From NCBI GenBank assembly GCA_963849495.1, contig CAWKHN010000022.1, positions 37,576 through 101,575 of the forward strand: a stretch of 64,000 nucleotides of DNA, given 5' to 3'. The notes under the pieces were generated by a model that saw only the letters and a list, made by a program, of their open reading frames with translations, ran no database searches and had not been told where the DNA came from. A program made the position numbers and the translations under genes. This stretch comes from an uncultured Chloroflexia bacterium (GTDB taxonomy: Bacteria > Chloroflexota > Limnocylindria > Limnocylindrales > CSP1-4). Positions 51,032-57,995 of the stretch are shown piece by piece; positions within the stretch are counted from its first letter, which is position 1; the number at the start of each line of letters is the position of its first letter.

Positions 51032-52804
51032 TTGCGAGAGCCAGGATCCGGCAGCGGAGCCGGACGAGCCCGAGGACCGGATCCCGTGCCGCCCGTGGTC
51101 CCGGCCAAGATCCGGGTGCCGTCGCCGGCGGCCTTGCCGCGCGAGCGCCTCGAGTCGCGGCTGCGCGAGGCGCTCCGGCGGCGCCTGACCCTTGTCGTCG
51201 CCCCGGCCGGCTCCGGCAAGACCACCCTTGTCGCGCGGCTCGCGGGTACCTGCGGCATGCCGGTGGGCTGGTACCGCGCCGAGACATGGGACGCGGACGA
51301 GCGATCCTTCATCCGGCACGTGGAGGCGGCACTCCTGGCCGCGGTTCCCGGGCTGCCCGCGGGCTGGGCCGGCGTGGAGGATGCCGCACGCAACCTGGAG
51401 ACCCGATTGGAATCGGGTCCCGTCCTGCTCGTCATCGACGACTTCCACACGCTCGAGGACACTGAGGCCGAATCCGCGTTCGGGCGGCTGGTCGACTACG
51501 CGCCACCATGGCTCGCGATCGTCGTCGCGTCGCGGGTGGTGCCCCGTGTGAACCTGACCAGGCTCCGGGTTGCCGGGGAGCTCCTGGAGCTCGGACCGGA
51601 CGACCTCCGGTTTCGGGCCTGGGAGGTCGAGGAGCTGTTCCGTGACATCTACCACGACCCGGTTCCGCCTGGCGACCTGGCCGTGCTGGCGAGGCGCACG
51701 GAGGGCTGGGCCGCCGGCCTCCAGCTGTACCACCTCGCGACCCGCGGCAAGTCGGTCGAGGAGCGCCGCCGGGTCCTGACCGGGGCTGGCTCGAGCGTCC
51801 GCCTGGTCCGCGAATACCTCGCGAGCAACGTGCTGTCCGGGCTCCCCGACGAGCTTCGGCGGTTCCTGCTCGACACCTGCGTGCTCGGCCGGTTGTCGGG
51901 CCGGCTGTGTGACGAGCTGCGCGGAGAGCACGGCAGCACGGCGATCCTCGAGGATCTTGCCCACCGCGGCGTGTTCACAGTTCCCGTGGAGGATGCGGAC
52001 GACGCATACCGGTACCACGAGGTGCTGCGTCAGCACCTGGACCGCATGCTCGTGGAGGAGGTCGGCGAGGCACGGGCCCGGGCACGCCATGCGGCCGCCG
52101 GCAGGCTGCTGGAGACCGACGGCGCGCTGTCCGAGGCTCTCCGCGCGTACTGTCGGGCCGAGGATTGGGACGCCCTGCGCCGCCTCCTCGGGATGCAGGG
52201 AGAGCGGCTGGCGGCCACCAGCGAGCGCGCCTGGGTGGACGTGGTGCCGCCGGCGATCGAGCGGCACGACCCGTGGGTGGCCCTGGCCGCGGCACGACGG
52301 GCACGGAACGCCGGGCGCTGGGCGGCGGCGCTGGACGCCTACGCGCGGGCTGCATCAGCGTTCGGGGCAGCGCCCGCGGCCGACATCGCGCGCCGGGAGC
52401 GGCGGGCCCTGGCGGGCTGGCTCGACCCGGCCGCGACACAACCGACGACCGCCGTCGGCCAGCTCCGCGGCGGACTGATCCGCGAGCCCGCGGCCGCGGC
52501 CCGCGACGCGTCGCGGCTGGACGACCGCGAGACCCCGGTCGTCCACGGTCTGCTGGCACTCGCGGCCGGCGACGTTCTCGCGGCCAGGCGCCAGCTCGAG
52601 TCGGCGGCCGACACCGGGGAGGCCGGTCCCATTGCGTGCGCAGCGGCACGTCTCGCGGCTGCGGTGGCCGGCGTGCTGGCCGGAGAGCCCGTGGACCCGC
52701 GGATCCGTCGACCGGGCCGTGGACGAGGCGGAGAGGGCGGGTGTGCCGTGGCTTGCGCGCCTGGCACGGGAGATCGGCGTTCGTCTCGGCGACGAGCCGG
52801 ATGA
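51032..52804 (+). CDS. STAND/AAA-type NTPase regulatory protein (N-terminal part of a probable frameshifted large regulator)
   Basis: Walker A LVVAPAGSGKTTLVARLAG and Walker B LLVIDDFHTLED, followed by a helical/TPR-like region. The frame closes at 52804 while a +1 frame carrying SARP-like sequence opens at 52632. Confidence 0.6.
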   Translation: MREPGSGSGAGRARGPDPVPPVVPAKIRVPSPAALPRERLESRLREALRRRLTLVVAPAGSGKTTLVARLAGTCGMPVGWYRAETWDADERSFIRHVEAALLAAVPGLPAGWAGVEDAARNLETRLESGPVLLVIDDFHTLEDTEAESAFGRLVDYAPPWLAIVVASRVVPRVNLTRLRVAGELLELGPDDLRFRAWEVEELFRDIYHDPVPPGDLAVLARRTEGWAAGLQLYHLATRGKSVEERRRVLTGAGSSVRLVREYLASNVLSGLPDELRRFLLDTCVLGRLSGRLCDELRGEHGSTAILEDLAHRGVFTVPVEDADDAYRYHEVLRQHLDRMLVEEVGEARARARHAAAGRLLETDGALSEALRAYCRAEDWDALRRLLGMQGERLAATSERAWVDVVPPAIERHDPWVALAAARRARNAGRWAAALDAYARAASAFGAAPAADIARRERRALAGWLDPAATQPTTAVGQLRGGLIREPAAAARDASRLDDRETPVVHGLLALAAGDVLAARRQLESAADTGEAGPIACAAARLAAAVAGVLAGEPVDPRIRRPGRGRGGEGGCAVACAPGTGDRRSSRRRAG

Positions 52805-53993
52805 CGCCGCCGACGGCGCCCGGCGAGCCTCCGCGCCGGGCCTCGCGGATGATGAGTGGGGCCCTGCCCTCCTGGCGCTCGCCGATGCCTGGACCGGTGG
52901 CGCCGATCCCGAGGACCGCCTGACCTCGGCCGAGATCGCCGCCGCCGCGTTCCGGCGCGTCGGCGCCGCCGTGCTCGAGGCGTGGTCCCGCGGCCTGGCC
53001 GCAATCGCCCTTGCCCAGTCGGGCGCACCCGATGCCCGGGACGTCGCGCTCTCGGTCGAGAGCCTGGGACGCGCGACGGGTACGCCGGCGGCGCGGCTGC
53101 TGGCCTATGCGGCCCTCGCGGGCATGGGCGAGGAGCGGAGCGAGGAGTTCGCCGTCCTGGCCGCATCCGTCGCCACGGAGACGGGGCTGGAGGTGCCGCA
53201 ATCCATGGCCGTGCCGCCGGATGACGTCGCGACGCGCCCCGGGCCGGCGGGGTCACAGGGCATCGTCCGTCTTCACACGTTCGGAGGATTCATTTTCGAG
53301 CTGGATGGACGGCGCGTGCCGCTCGATGGAGCAAAGCCGCGGGTTCGAGCGCTCCTCCGTCTGCTTGCCGTCAGGGGCGGTGCCCCGGTCCACCGTGAGG
53401 TGATCCAGGACGCGCTGTGGCCCGAGGCCGACGCGGCCGCAGGTGCCCGCAGCCTGCACGTCGCCGTGTCGGCTCTCCGGCGGCTGCTCGACGACGTTGC
53501 GCAGCCGGTCGGCGGAGGGCTGGTGGCCCGGCAGGGGGATGCCTATCGGCTTGACCTGTCCCCGGACGACGTTGACACCGGGCGGTTCGAGCGCGCGATC
53601 GCCGATGGCCGTGCGGCCCGGGCACGCGGAGAGAGTGCGTCGGCCGCGTTCGAGTCCGCGCTGGAGCTCTACGCCGGCGAGCTGCTGCCCGAGGACGGAC
53701 CAGCGGACTGGGTGATCGACGATCGGGAGCGATACAGGAACGAGGCACTGGAGGCGGCTCAGGCGATCGCCGAGAAGGCGCTGCTCGACGGCGACTTCTC
53801 AGTTGCCGTCCGCGCATGCCGGTTCGGCATCGGGCTCGACCGCTACCAGGACAGCCTGTGGCGCGTGCTCATCGAGGCGCGAGATCGCGCCGGGGACGCA
53901 GGGGCCGCGGCTCGTGACCGCCGGGACTATGCGCAGGTGCTCGAGGGCCTCGGCGTCACGATCCCGGACCAGTCTCCCGTCAGCCCGAACTGA
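52632..53993 (+). CDS. SARP-type (OmpR-family winged helix + BTAD) domain protein; probable C-terminal continuation of the upstream STAND ATPase
   Basis: HTFGGFIFELDGRRVPLDGAKPRVRALLRLLAVRGGAPVHREVIQDALWPEADAAAGARSLHVAVSALRRLL matches a trans_reg_C winged helix. ALELYAGELLPED...WRVLIEA is BTAD-like. Confidence 0.6.
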   Translation: MRAQRHVSRLRWPACWPESPWTRGSVDRAVDEAERAGVPWLARLAREIGVRLGDEPDDAADGARRASAPGLADDEWGPALLALADAWTGGADPEDRLTSAEIAAAAFRRVGAAVLEAWSRGLAAIALAQSGAPDARDVALSVESLGRATGTPAARLLAYAALAGMGEERSEEFAVLAASVATETGLEVPQSMAVPPDDVATRPGPAGSQGIVRLHTFGGFIFELDGRRVPLDGAKPRVRALLRLLAVRGGAPVHREVIQDALWPEADAAAGARSLHVAVSALRRLLDDVAQPVGGGLVARQGDAYRLDLSPDDVDTGRFERAIADGRAARARGESASAAFESALELYAGELLPEDGPADWVIDDRERYRNEALEAAQAIAEKALLDGDFSVAVRACRFGIGLDRYQDSLWRVLIEARDRAGDAGAAARDRRDYAQVLEGLGVTIPDQSPVSPN

Positions 53994-54371
53994 GATCGGG
54001 GGACAGCTGCCAGGCTGTTGCCGTCACACGTCCGACGTCGGCGGCGGTCACGGGATCGGAGATCCTGCGCTCGTCACGCCCAGGCAACCGCCACGCGATC
54101 GAAGCTCCCGCGTTCGGGGGCGCTGCTCGTGATCGCCAGGTTTCCCGCTCACGCACCTCGAGTGTCTACCCGAGCCAACTCTGTGTCGCGACCTCGGACG
54201 TCGGCGGAACGACGTCGGCTGCCTGAGGACGGCAGCAACGGGGTCGGTCGAGGTGACAGACCGTAATGACGCCGAGCCTGTCGGGACCCACGATCGTCGT
54301 GCACTGCAATTACAGCCCTGTCCGGCTGCGTGGATTGGCGTGGCCCGCTCCAGCTTAGAGGGTGGCGGCGA

Positions 54372-55946
54372 ATGAAATCTGCACTGATTCGCCGCTTCCC
54401 ACCCGCCGCCACGCGGAAGGTGTTGCCCCTCGCCGCGCTGCTGGCCTTCGTCGTGGTCAGCACGTCCGTGCGAGCGGCAGAGCAGGTGAACCTCGGAACG
54501 GCCACAGGCTTCGCGGTTCTGGCCGGCACCACCATCACGAACAACAATTCGACCACGATCACCGGTGACATCGGCGTGAGCGGCCCCGCCACCACCTCGA
54601 TAACGGATAACGGCACCTTGACGCTGAACGGCACCAGCTACTACGGCGAAACCGTCGCTGACACTGCCCAGGCCGACCTGCACGCCGCGTACGACGCGAC
54701 TGCCGCGCTCCCATCGACGTCCTCAATCGGTGGAGCCCTCGGTCCTCTCCAGACGCTTGGCCCAGGCGTCTACTCTTCGGACGCCGCCTTCAACCTGACG
54801 GGCACCCTGACTCTCGACGGCGAGGGCAACTCGGACGCCGTGTTCATCCTCCGGACAGGGGCCGCGCTCACCACCGCGGCATCCAGCGTTGTCTCGCTCG
54901 AGAACGGCGCAGATGCCTGCAACGTCTTCTGGGTGGTCAACGACGCGGCAACCCTTGGCGCATCGACGGTCTTCAAGGGGACCATCATGGCGGGGGCGGC
55001 GATCACGCTGGGCGCCGGAGCGAGGATCGATGGTCGTGCGCTGTCTCTCAGCGCCGCAGTCACCATGGACGCGAACACAATTGACGTCGGCACATGTGGG
55101 GCCCCGACCGCGATGCCGAGCCTCAGGCTCGCCAAGCACGTCATCAACGACAACGGCGGCACCGCCGTCGCGGGCGACTGGACCCTCTCTGCCGGCGCCT
55201 TCTCGGTGACCGGCTCGGAGGCGGCCCAGGAGGTCACCGACCAGGCCGGCACCTACGCCCTCTCCGAGACGTCGGTCCCGGGCTACGCCACCACCTCGAT
55301 CACCTGTGACGACGCCCCCGGCGTCGGGGTCACCTCGGTGACGATCGGGCCCGGTGAGACCACGACCTGCACGTTCGTCAACGACGACACCGCACCCGAT
55401 GCGACGCCCACACCGGCCCCGACGCCGACCCCGACACCGACCCCGACACCGACGCCGACCCCGACGCCGACCCCGACACCGACCCCGACACCGACGCCGA
55501 CCCCGACGCCGACCCCGACGCCGACCCCGACGCCGACCCCGACCCCGACGCCCACGCCCATCCCGACACCCACGCCCATCCCGACCCCTACCCTGACACC
55601 GACCCCGACGCCGACCCCGACGCCGACCCCGACGCCCACGCCCATCCCGACCCCTACCCTGACACCGACCCCGACGCCGACCCCGACGCCGACCCCTACC
55701 CTGACCCCGACCCCCACCCTGACCCCGGATCCGACCGTGGGTCCGACCGTGGATCCGACCCCTACTGGGTCGATCGAGGCTGGGGACATCGCCCTACCGC
55801 CCACGGACGTGACCGGTCCAGGTCCAGGCCCGGCCGGGGGCCAAACGTGGATTTCGTTCCTGCTCTTCCTGGCCCTGGCCTCATCCGCCCTGCTTGTATC
55901 CGCCCTGATACCTGGGCTGCCGAAGCGGCGGCGCGGACGACGGTGA
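54372..55946 (+). CDS. secreted DUF3494 (ice-binding-like) protein with prealbumin-like domain, (PT)n linker and C-terminal hydrophobic anchor
   Basis: Signal peptide MKSALIRRF...[17 protein letters not shown]3494/IBP-like beta-solenoid segment [38 protein letters not shown]...[41 protein letters not shown]. Then DWTLSAG...TTCTFVND, ~100 aa of TPTPTP, and a C-terminal [32 protein letters not shown]. An alternative start lies at 54330. Confidence 0.6.
55405..55730 (+). repeat. coding hexanucleotide tandem repeat (ACNCCN)n encoding (TP)n linker
   Basis: ccgacaccgaccccgacgccgacc units repeated >50 times. This produces spurious ORFs in the other frames and strand (55283..55987-, 55354..55596+). 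Confidence 0.85.
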
Positions 55947-55996
55947 GAAGCGCCGCGAGGCGGCTGTCGCCGGCCAGATGGTGGCAACCGGCAAGC

Positions 55997-57469
55997 TCAG
56001 CCCTTGCTGAAGAACTCCAGCTCGGACAACACGACCGGGGTGCCGGTCGGCCCGTTGGTGTCGACGACCTTGATCTGCACCGAGTCGACCTTTGAGGCCG
56101 ACAGGTCGAACGTCTGCGAATCGTGGACGTCCTCGAGGTTCAGCGTCGTTGAGGTGCCGTCGGAGAACGTGAGCTGCAGCGTCGCCGGACGGCGCATGTC
56201 GACGAACGAGTTTTCCGAGCCCGAGTGCACGATCACGGCCCCCAGGTCCACGGGTGTCTTGAACGTGATCGTGAGCGACGGCGTGGCGCCGTTGGCCTCC
56301 CAGTCCGTGTTGGTGTAGGTGTCGAATGCGAGCCGGCCCTCGTGGCCCTTGATCTCCTCGGAGGCAGTGACGGTCACTGGTCGCACCGGCTCGAGCGTCG
56401 GCGAGACGATCTTGCGGATGTTGTCGATGACGCCCGGAACGCCGCCGCCGATGGCCTCGTCGATGTACTTGTGGAACGAGGGGACGCCGATGTAGCCGAA
56501 GATGCCGACCGCAACGACGAGCCCGAGCCCGATCTGGAGGAGGCTTCGCAGCCGCAGGATCGACCGGATGCCCGAACGGGCCCCGGCTTTCATCGAGCCC
56601 CCGCGCTCCCCGGCGGCGAATGCCTTGGGCGGCTTCCGCTTGCGTCGGAAGATCCGGCGCCACCAGGGGAGGGTCTTCTCCGACACGACGGCCGCCGCCA
56701 CAAGGCTTTCACCGCAGCGCCGGCAGAACCGGCGCGCGGGATCGTTCGGCTCGGCGCAGGTGCCGCAGATGCGGTCACCGGGCTGGGCCACACGGGCCTC
56801 GACACCGGCGACGGGCCTGGGTCGAGCGGGAGATGCCTCGGTCGGCATCCGCGCGGCCGGCTGTTGCGAGACCGGTTCGCTGGGCATGCGCGGCGCAGGT
56901 TCGACCGGAGGCGCGGCAGCCGGGCCGGGGCGGGCCGGTGGGATGGCGCCGGGGCGGACGGGCGCCGGCTGGAGCGGGGGGGCCGGCTGCGAGGGCGCCG
57001 GCTGGGGCGCCGGTCCGACGGCAGGCGGCGGGACGATCCCACCGGTGCCGGCTGCCCCGAAGGTCACTGACGCTGCACGCGACGGACCCCCGTGGCGGGC
57101 GACCGGCGCGGGAGCTGGTTCCGGCTCGGGCTCGGGCTCAGGTTCCGGCTCTCGGTCGGGTTCGGGCGTGGGTTCCGGCTCGGGCTCGGGCTCAGGTTCC
57201 GGCTCTGGTTCGGGTTCGGGCGTGGGTTCCGGCACCGGTTCGGGTTCCCGCATCGGTTCGGGTTCCGGCACCGGTTCGGGTTCGAGGACGGTCTGGGGCT
57301 GCGGCTCGGGCTCAGGTTCCGGCTCGGGCTCCGGTTCTGGCTCCGGTTCGGGAACGGGCTCCGGCTCCGGTTCGGGCTCCGGCGCACGCGTGGGTTCCAC
57401 CACCGGCTCCGGTTCGGGAACGGGCTCCGGCTCCGGTTCGGGCTCCGGCGCACGCGTGGGTTCCACCAC
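55997..57469 (-). CDS. membrane protein: (PE)n disordered region, zinc ribbon, single TM helix, C-terminal discoidin-like (F5/8 type C-like) ectodomain
   Basis: N-terminal EPEPEP repeats and a Pro-rich segment. [19 protein letters not shown] zinc ribbon. TM helix [20 protein letters not shown]. The C-terminal ~170 aa ([16 protein letters not shown]...[12 protein letters not shown]...[10 protein letters not shown]...) has the hallmarks of a discoidin/carbohydrate-binding domain. Probably fused with the ORF 57528..57995. Confidence 0.55.
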
Positions 57470-57760
57470 CGGCTCCGGTTCGGGCTCGGGCTCAGGTTCC
57501 GGCTCTGGCTCGGGTTCGGGCGTGGGTTCACACCGGCTCCGGTTCGGGCTCGGGCTCAGGTTCCGGCTCAGGCTCAGGTTCCGGCTCAGGCTCAGGTTCC
57601 GGCTCAGGCTCAGGTTCCGGCTCAGGCTCAGGTTCCGGCTCAGGCGCGGGTTCGGGCTCCGGCTCGGGTTCGGGCTCCGGCTCCGGCTCAGGTTCGGGCT
57701 CCGGCTCAGGCTCAGGTTCCGGCTCAGGCGCGGGTTCGGGCTCCGGCTCCGGTTCTGGTT
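57115..57760 (-). repeat. coding hexanucleotide tandem repeat encoding (PE)n / (EP)n
   Basis: ggttccggctcgggctcaggttcc... units on the + strand (GSGS in + frames, PEPE on the minus frame) over ~650 bp. This spawns multiple spurious ORFs (57092..57985+, 56502..58031+, 57064..57531-). Confidence 0.85.
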
Positions 57761-57995
57761 CGATCACCACGACGCGGTCCGCGGGAGACCAGCCACCTCT
57801 CGACAGGCCGGTGGGGGTCGCGGGCGGTGCCGGTTTGGCGGGGGCCGTCGGCGTCGGGGCGTCCGTCCCGGGGGCCTCGGTGCCCTGGTCAGCCTCCTTC
57901 TGGCCGACCCATTCGAGGAACTGGCCGCAGTTCCCGCAGAACGCGTCCGTCGCCTCGTTCCGGTGGCCGCAGTTCCCGCAGATGATCACGCACAC
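57528..57995 (-). CDS. double zinc-ribbon N-terminal module followed by (PE)n repeats; probably the N-terminus of the 55997..57469 gene separated by a frameshift inside the repeat
   Basis: [29 protein letters not shown] is two CxxC pairs. The ORF ends inside the PE repeat. The next ORF starts 59 nt later in a different frame, with the same repeat and orientation. Confidence 0.5.

Follow-up and report, generated by a model that had tools for sequence, protein, structure and literature searches.

The 64,000-nt stretch of DNA analyzed here (contig CAWKHN010000022.1 of assembly GCA_963849495.1, from an uncultured Chloroflexia bacterium; hereafter the window) carries, at 54372-55946 on the plus strand, a DUF3494 surface-protein gene (524 codons plus stop) that converges on the end of a contractile injection system (CIS) operon, which raises the question of whether its product works with that system or merely adjoins it. 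We assign a probability of about 80% to the reading that the 524-aa product is a Sec-exported, C-terminally anchored cell-surface fibril with a DUF3494 binding face, encoded on an accessory cassette of ~2 kb, and that the CIS includes it neither as a component or fibre nor as cargo. This reading draws on domain identities, the predicted fold, topology elements, variability of the stalk, cassette boundaries, the presence/absence pattern among syntenic loci, and a deviation in codon usage.

The gene is preceded by a ribosome-binding site, AGAGGGTGG, 5 nt 5′ of its ATG; a GTG at 54330 was judged unlikely as an alternative start. Hydropathy revealed exactly two hydrophobic segments in the protein, at aa ~17-33 and aa ~494-516. 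The first forms the core of a signal peptide (aa 1-35; 54372..54476, +) with a basic n-region and no lipobox Cys, for which the -3/-1 rule predicts cleavage before A, at VRA↓A near aa 35, and this N-terminus is conserved among orthologues. The following region (54516..55082, +) matched Ice_binding PF11999 at aa 49-237 (E=4.3e-49, 167.4 bits against a cutoff of 28.7, profile positions 1-207 of 208), the DUF3494 or IBP-1 family. An AF2 model of aa 1-345, built with 50 homologues, had a mean pLDDT of 89.2 and consisted of a beta-solenoid (aa ~40-240) flanked by a single long alpha-helix (aa 94-111), followed by an all-beta domain. In Foldseek comparisons, the solenoid superposed on PDB 7BWY with a TM of 0.94 and a root-mean-square deviation of 1.1 Å, and 31 matches to solved ice-binding proteins were obtained at E<=0.001; by sequence, 25 solved ice-binding proteins were matched, the best being PDB 5UYT (E=8e-48). 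The all-beta domain is a SpaA_2/CnaB-type, prealbumin-like Ig domain (aa 250-334; 55119..55373, +; PF19403, E=5e-15, 56.3 bits against a cutoff of 25) with weak Foldseek matches to Gram-positive pilins; K255, E299, and N337 lie in the expected sequence motifs LAK, YALSE, and FVND and form a candidate isopeptide triad.

C-terminal to the Ig domain, the (TP)n linker (aa 346-460; 55407..55751, +) comprises 115 residues, 103 of which are T or P (51 T and 52 P), and the TP stretch is encoded by a DNA array with a period of 6/12 (55402-55727). Antisense ORFs (open reading frames) over this repeat, such as 55283-55987 on the minus strand, were dismissed as repeat artefacts. The linker is followed by an LPPTD box (aa 475-479; 55794..55808, +), which lies 14 residues ahead of a transmembrane (TM) helix (aa ~494-516; 55851..55919, +), and by a basic stop-transfer tail at the extreme C-terminus, PKRRRGRR (aa 517-524; 55920..55943, +). 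The preliminary description had already recognized the signal peptide, the ice-binding-like solenoid, the prealbumin-like Ig domain, the (TP)n stalk, and a hydrophobic helix with an Arg tail lacking LPXTG, all of which are borne out here; it had overlooked the LPPTD box.

The closest whole-protein relatives, at 58-67% identity, were P0001/L001, from an ENA metagenome, and the proteins of L004 and L005, two metagenome-assembled genomes (MAGs; CAVTIN01 and CAVYXU01) labelled 'uncultured Chloroflexia bacterium' in which the whole region is syntenic with the window. Exact look-ups of the window's own DUF3494 and baseplate J proteins in the protein collection gave no record. Between the window and these two MAGs, baseplate J was 90% and tail protein I 86-88% identical, and the DUF3494 gene was the fastest-evolving gene of the neighborhood (58-67% identity vs. 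84-91% for the CIS core). The orthologues retained the signal peptide, solenoid, linker, and tail, including the box (conserved in L004, L005, and L001) and RRRGRR, while the stalk was remodelled: the L004 protein has seven SpaA_2 domains between the ice-binding protein (IBP) domain and the TP linker and reaches 1,037 aa, and the L005 protein combines a single SpaA domain with a longer TP linker. The TP repeat of L001 is frameshifted in the assembly. Four additional relatives (P0009, P0014, P0022, and P0039) have the same IBP-SpaA plan but end in LPXTG signals, and the DUF3494 family is therefore a routine surface-anchored passenger.

In the arrangement proposed here, the protein would be exported by Sec and, after removal of the signal peptide, would expose the solenoid at the mature N-terminus, while the C-terminal module of LPxTD box, 14-residue spacer, TM helix, and Arg-rich tail would hold it at the cell. 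The single SpaA/CnaB-type domain and the ~115-residue (TP)n linker would carry the solenoid through and beyond the wall; if extended, the linker could span about 35 nm, and the stalk, whose length differs between orthologues, would set the reach. The working part would be the flat face of the solenoid, binding an ordered surface, which may be ice or ordered water, a polysaccharide, or a particle surface. This domain plan supports the surface, fibre-like role that had initially been suggested.

To delimit the gene's association with the neighboring operon, the last CIS gene, which encodes a discoidin protein, was used as a probe for further CIS loci, and the genomic contexts were then read. Six further loci (L083-L088) shared the order PPDK ... 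STAND/SARP regulator, convergent discoidin, Zn-ribbon, tail I, baseplate J, gp25, and VgrG, with baseplate J proteins 84-89% identical to that of the window; the metagenome scan contributed one of them, L083, and the viral-contig scan contained no discoidin relatives. None of the six contained a DUF3494 gene by tblastn (0/6), and the gene was thus carried by three of the nine loci sharing PPDK–STAND/SARP–CIS synteny. DNA homology to the window ended at ~53946-53957 in all six and restarted at ~55995-56001 in all but L085, which had no discoidin-side match. These breakpoints define a cassette of about 2.04 kb (53957..55996, +) that comprises the last ~12 regulator codons, a 378-nt leader, the DUF3494 gene, and a 50-nt spacer, and that was also found in L004, L005, and L001. 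At the empty sites, the regulator and discoidin genes were 20-390 bp apart, with no remnants of the cassette in L083-L088. Cassette-type acquisition fits this presence/absence pattern among syntenic loci, and in some members of a Chloroflexia-like lineage the cassette would have inserted where the STAND/SARP regulator and the last CIS gene converge. When a tree was built from the gp25–baseplate J–tail I block, L087, which lacks the DUF3494 gene, grouped with L004 and L005 and not with the window; the cassette was therefore gained or lost more than once, or exchanged at the site.

Hallmarks of mobility were sparse, with no tRNA in the window and no integrase or direct repeats at the cassette boundaries. 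L001, a single 3-kb metagenomic contig and hence a hint only, keeps the cassette together with a 77-bp stub of the regulator and about eight discoidin codons, beyond both of which lies unrelated DNA; this arrangement may stem from movement of the cassette, from a lost CIS, or from a chimeric assembly of the contig. The flanking DNA of this copy contains an excisionase-like helix-turn-helix ORF (…RTVYRQLAEGRLPAIRIGWFVLVRRKDLEEW…; features at L001 1-705 (-) and 586-2619). Additionally, a GC-rich element of ~60 nt (…TTCGTGGACGCCCGGCCACGGCCGTGTGGCCTGGCACGCCACGATCCCGGGCTGAC…) occurs twice in the empty site of L087 (7883-8260) that separates the discoidin gene from the regulator, and it may be a small repeat element at an insertion hotspot.

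Within the cassette, a conserved leader or promoter region (54166..54371, +; ~200 nt), which includes the ribosome-binding site and a short upstream ORF, was 74-77% identical at the DNA level to the upstream regions of L001, L004, and L005. In the relatives, the short ORF (MT[WP]xLSG[LP]TI[VI]V[HD]...) shares the reading frame of the main ORF, and in the window a TAG ends it; it is possibly an upstream ORF or a regulatory leader. No Rfam match was obtained in 53800-56100, nor was a consensus promoter or terminator found.

Beyond the syntenic loci, a CIS gene was present within 10 kb at only L004 and L005 among 79 DUF3494/SpaA loci (one genome per species, 185,579 species genomes), and none was found near about 75 other DUF3494 loci. 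The gene lies on the strand opposite to the CIS genes, convergent with them and behind its own conserved leader. Its absence from six of nine syntenic CIS loci, the lack of a CIS link elsewhere, and the opposite strand all indicate that it is not tied to the CIS. In the product, only the Ice_binding and SpaA domains were found with Pfam and NCBIfam, with no homology to a known CIS part, and the Sec signal peptide and membrane anchor do not fit loading into a cytoplasmic sheath-tube particle.

How the protein is held at the surface is the point on which an alternative survives best. The default for the C-terminal tail is a plain membrane anchor; alternatively, the LPxTD box could be the site of a sortase-type or other dedicated peptidase, in which case the TM helix and Arg tail would be cut off, the protein would become covalently linked to the wall, and the tail would act as a lineage-specific sorting signal, a proposal that we hold tentatively and at somewhat less than even odds. 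In its favor, L-P-x-T-D with a variable x is kept in the four orthologues (LPPTD, LPPTD, LPRTD, and LPNTD), and in each the box precedes V, a spacer rich in Gly and Pro, W, the helix, and RRRGRR. An unbiased census of tails covered 174 DUF3494 relatives, which are not independent samples, 100 of them with a C-terminal helix and a basic end; a PxTD box stood ahead of the helix in 45 of these, vs. 4.5 ± 2.2 expected after shuffling the same segments, a tenfold enrichment. The distance from PxTD to the helix was 12-18 residues (mode 14), and the remaining tails carried LPXTG-like (28), GVDTG-like (15), or other (12) boxes, the first two at the same position; one family member had PPATG. The tail also occurred on giant proteins without an IBP domain (974-1,729 aa), built of SpaA_2, SpaA_4, DUF7507, and DUF11 repeats, at four Chloroflexia MAG loci (L030 7100-12289, L044 9383-13432, L056 8681-13585, and L066 993-3917), where the proteins end in PPTDML[PL]xTD, a spacer, W, a TM helix, and RR; no sorting-signal model scored above its cutoff for this motif itself. 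In one Actinomycetota MAG (L069 1-1279), a sortase-like ORF (…HVD…TLVTC…R) begins within a DUF3494 gene whose tail is of the GVDTG type (NF058571, at 24.8 bits under the cutoff of 29), which is direct gene-neighbor support for DUF3494 proteins being sortase substrates in some lineages; GVDTG_CTERM is the NCBIfam model for the actinobacterial variant. LPxTD is, moreover, among the sortase motif variants listed in PMC9210967.

Several results stand against cleavage. No sortase-like gene was found within 5-10 kb of the PxTD-tailed genes in L002-L006, L009, L019, L030, L044, L056, L066, L089, and L090, and no TLxTC-type (sortase) ORF was found in the window. The gap of 14 residues between box and helix exceeds that of classical LPXTG signals. 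The layout of a sortase substrate is present in part, in the helix and the basic extreme C-terminus, but the LPXTG pentapeptide is replaced by LPPTD and neither TIGR01167 nor PF00746 was matched. The tail was likewise not a catalogued sorting signal of the exosortase, archaeosortase, rhombosortase, or GVDTG types: searched alone, it gave zero families at E<=10 against the PEP-CTERM, PGF-CTERM, GlyGly-CTERM, MYXO-CTERM, and GVDTG_CTERM models, and the orthologous tails matched no NCBIfam or Pfam sorting model. Profile searches with the tail returned 4 short fragments with a word-indexed method and 16 short fragments with HMMER (1.84 billion representatives), numbers that are no measure of the spread of the tail or of its passengers. 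A still more tentative extension is that PxTD, ~14 residues, a TM helix, and a basic end constitute an uncatalogued sorting signal that a Chloroflexota lineage uses in the position taken elsewhere by LPXTG and GVDTG, which would be served by a dedicated sortase-like enzyme and shared by DUF3494 proteins and giant SpaA/DUF7507/DUF11 adhesins. Short PxTD-tailed DUF3494 genes (~290 aa; P0098, P0086, P0079, and P0071 in L002, L003, L089, and L090) were found in a different setting, with a gene for a Transgly_assoc (GlsB/YeaQ/YmgE-type) small membrane protein ~0.1-2 kb away in four of four contexts and frequently a PadR or OmpR-type regulator alongside, with neither sortase nor CIS there; this neighborhood looks like a stress-response type.

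Whether the binding face recognizes ice is a second matter, and a genuine ice-binding protein, acting as an ice adhesin or recrystallization inhibitor and aiding the freeze-thaw survival of a soil bacterium, is possible but doubtful. The closest relatives derive from MAGs and metagenome assemblies with the isolate-name prefix 'MFD', which we take to denote temperate soil samples, and the nearest solved structures are all active ice-binding proteins. Likewise, the combination of anchor, Ig tether, and DUF3494 domain is the plan proposed for ice adhesins (anchor, Ig tether, and signal peptide in Vance 2018, as discussed in PMC9957290). However, DUF3494 is common well beyond icy habitats, and the proteins that carry it in a range of environments include substrate-binding or adhesive ones (PMC12337378). 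With NF045625 (IBP_CFB), the NCBIfam equivalog model, the score was 80.6 bits against a cutoff of 400, and no sequence rule predicts activity.

The composition of the gene bears on its origin. The 5′ half (54372-55106) had a GC content of 0.661, against a window mean of 0.717 and within the lowest 3% of 735-bp windows, in agreement with the dip noticed at first, for which acquisition and compositional bias had both been offered; both apply. In the IBP domain, first codon positions are AT-rich (GC1 of 0.60) owing to a high content of Thr, Asn, Ser, and Ile, and about half of the dip is due to amino-acid composition and half to a real deficit in GC at third codon positions (GC3). Relative to the GC3 expected from amino-acid composition and the codon usage of the window, the observed values were low for the whole gene (0.844 vs. 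0.924, z -7.1), the IBP domain (0.813 vs. 0.920, z -5.8), and the C-terminal tail (0.72 vs. 0.915, z -5.7), and native-like for the SpaA domain (0.95 vs. 0.918, z +1.2). The codon adaptation index (CAI), referenced to the ribosomal-protein/SecY/RpoA operon that opens the window, was 0.57 for the gene and 0.53 for its IBP domain, compared with 0.75-0.83 (about 0.78) for ribosomal, housekeeping, and CIS core genes. The SpaA domain (55119-55373) was 75-80% identical to SpaA repeats of otherwise unrelated proteins (P0024 and P0040, both JGI metagenome proteins, and those of L037 and L042), the sources including MAGs labelled Anaerolineales and Actinomycetota; together with the difference in GC3 between the SpaA and IBP domains (0.95 vs. 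0.81), this suggests a mosaic origin of the gene through domain shuffling.

Recent horizontal transfer from a distant phylum is, by comparison, an improbable source of the low GC. The GC3 and CAI deficits, whole-protein relatives no closer than 58-67%, and the horizontal transfer reported for DUF3494 (PMC7783341 and PMC6892780) are compatible with it. However, the GC3 of the IBP domain was low in all four orthologues (0.65-0.80), and the deficit is therefore an old property of the gene and not a mark of recent arrival, on which ground recent distant transfer was rejected. Moreover, PxTD tails and TP linkers of this type occur in other Chloroflexia-labelled MAGs (L006, L009, and L019), pointing to a donor within the phylum; similar GC3 deficits (0.77-0.85) were found in neighboring non-core genes, namely the STAND/SARP regulator, the discoidin gene, and a Zn-ribbon gene; and the cassette boundaries lack the tRNA, integrase, and direct repeats noted above. 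The preliminary description had also called the opposing discoidin gene less GC-rich; in its discoidin domain (GC3 0.93), the low GC is due to amino-acid composition alone.

A role as a CIS accessory, be it a tail-fibre-like adhesin, an outer anchor, or a cargo, of which the preliminary description had raised the adhesin or fibre and the cargo, and which could appeal to the 50 nt between the gene ends (stop at 55946, discoidin gene end at 55997), to the convergent arrangement kept in L004 and L005, and to a neighboring CIS gene that encodes a membrane-spanning glycan-binding protein, is largely refuted by the presence/absence pattern and appears very improbable, given six syntenic CIS loci that lack the gene despite core proteins 84-89% identical, about 75 other DUF3494 loci without CIS genes nearby, the opposite strand and separate conserved leader, a Sec-type signal peptide and TM anchor not expected of CIS cargo or fibres, and a literature search that gave no DUF3494–CIS link. 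That description had held that GC and codon usage indistinguishable from those of core genes, along with ubiquitous homologues never linked to CIS loci, would speak against its proposal; homologues were indeed ubiquitous and, apart from the two syntenic relatives, not CIS-linked, but GC and codon usage did differ from the core genes.

Five points weigh against the anchored, accessory surface fibril favored here. Export route and orientation are predicted from sequence rules; an RRF/RRRF motif near the N-terminus, 8 or more residues ahead of the hydrophobic core, leaves the Tat route as a minority possibility. The ligand may be ice or another surface, between which sequence does not decide. Because L087 nests among carriers, loss rather than gain may explain some of the empty sites. 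Finally, with the convergent arrangement conserved in three genomes, it is formally possible that in this lineage the gene is functionally connected with the CIS or with the SARP regulator upstream of it.

The CIS operon itself is real and lies on the minus strand, with genes for tube-LysM, VgrG, gp25, baseplate J, tail protein I, a Zn-ribbon protein, and, last, the Zn-ribbon-TM-NADase-type discoidin protein. This last gene (55997..57469, -) encodes a (PE)n stretch, a Zn-ribbon, a TM segment, and an NADase-type discoidin domain (NF047619, E=6e-14) and was present in all nine syntenic loci. In L004, a single 651-aa ORF spans both it and the Zn-ribbon-(PE)n ORF (57528-57995); the two are probably parts of one gene that a frameshift in the PE repeat has interrupted in the window. 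On the other side of the cassette, the STAND-ATPase/SARP (BTAD) regulator (51032..53993, +) consists of two overlapping ORFs with a frameshift near 52,700, the STAND-ATPase and SARP/BTAD ORFs lying in different frames and joining near 52,690-52,700 as '...GEPVDPR' / 'SVDRAVDEAERAG...'; the homologues in L084 and L088 are single genes (964-1000 aa), and the window regulator therefore carries a frameshift that is either a sequencing error or a mark of a pseudogene.

Taken on its own, the DUF3494 gene is ordinary: it encodes an already-known kind of surface protein on an accessory cassette that happens to adjoin the end of a CIS operon. A false lead is thereby removed: for this Chloroflexia-type CIS, which has the STAND/SARP regulator and the discoidin membrane protein as its conserved partners, the gene does not belong on the list of parts, fibres, or cargo. 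The gene also represents one more case, from a non-polar lineage, in which DUF3494 serves as a modular passenger on the cell surface with stalks of variable length. Its only mildly novel point is the PxTD tail, which could merit a dedicated model and, if a true sorting signal, would aid surface-proteome annotation in the poorly known monoderm Chloroflexota.

Among known systems, the protein resembles DUF3494 proteins with LPXTG, GVDTG-CTERM (NF058571), PEP-CTERM-like, or type IX secretion system (T9SS) tails, in which the same passenger is joined to the C-terminal sorting module of the host lineage; unlike these, the window protein and 44 relatives have a PxTD tail that is unmatched by NCBIfam or Pfam sorting models. 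It also resembles SfIBP_1 of Shewanella frigidimarina (PDB 6BG8, likewise matched by the sequence and structure searches) and the tandem-domain IBPv (PDB 5UYT), in that a DUF3494 solenoid and a beta-sandwich (Ig-like) tether are combined in a protein that is exported and stays attached to the cell, as proposed for an 'ice adhesin'. SfIBP_1, however, belongs to a cold-marine diderm and is presumably tethered at its N-terminus in the manner of a lipoprotein, whereas the window protein, for which ice binding is a possible activity, belongs to an apparently soil-dwelling, Chloroflexia-like host and has an N-terminal, distal solenoid, a SpaA/CnaB and (TP)n tether, and a C-terminal PxTD–TM–Arg anchor. 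The third comparison is with the fibrillar adhesins and 'periscope' proteins of Gram-positive bacteria (Monzon & Bateman 2022, PMC9210967), from which the window protein differs in its LPPTD box in place of LPXTG, set 14 residues from the helix, in the lack of a sortase found nearby, and in having DUF3494 as the binding domain; with them it shares a signal peptide, a distal binding domain, an Ig-like stalk, a low-complexity wall-spanning linker, and a tripartite C-terminal anchor, and the likeness to 'periscope' proteins extends to orthologue stalks that range from 1 to 7 SpaA domains.

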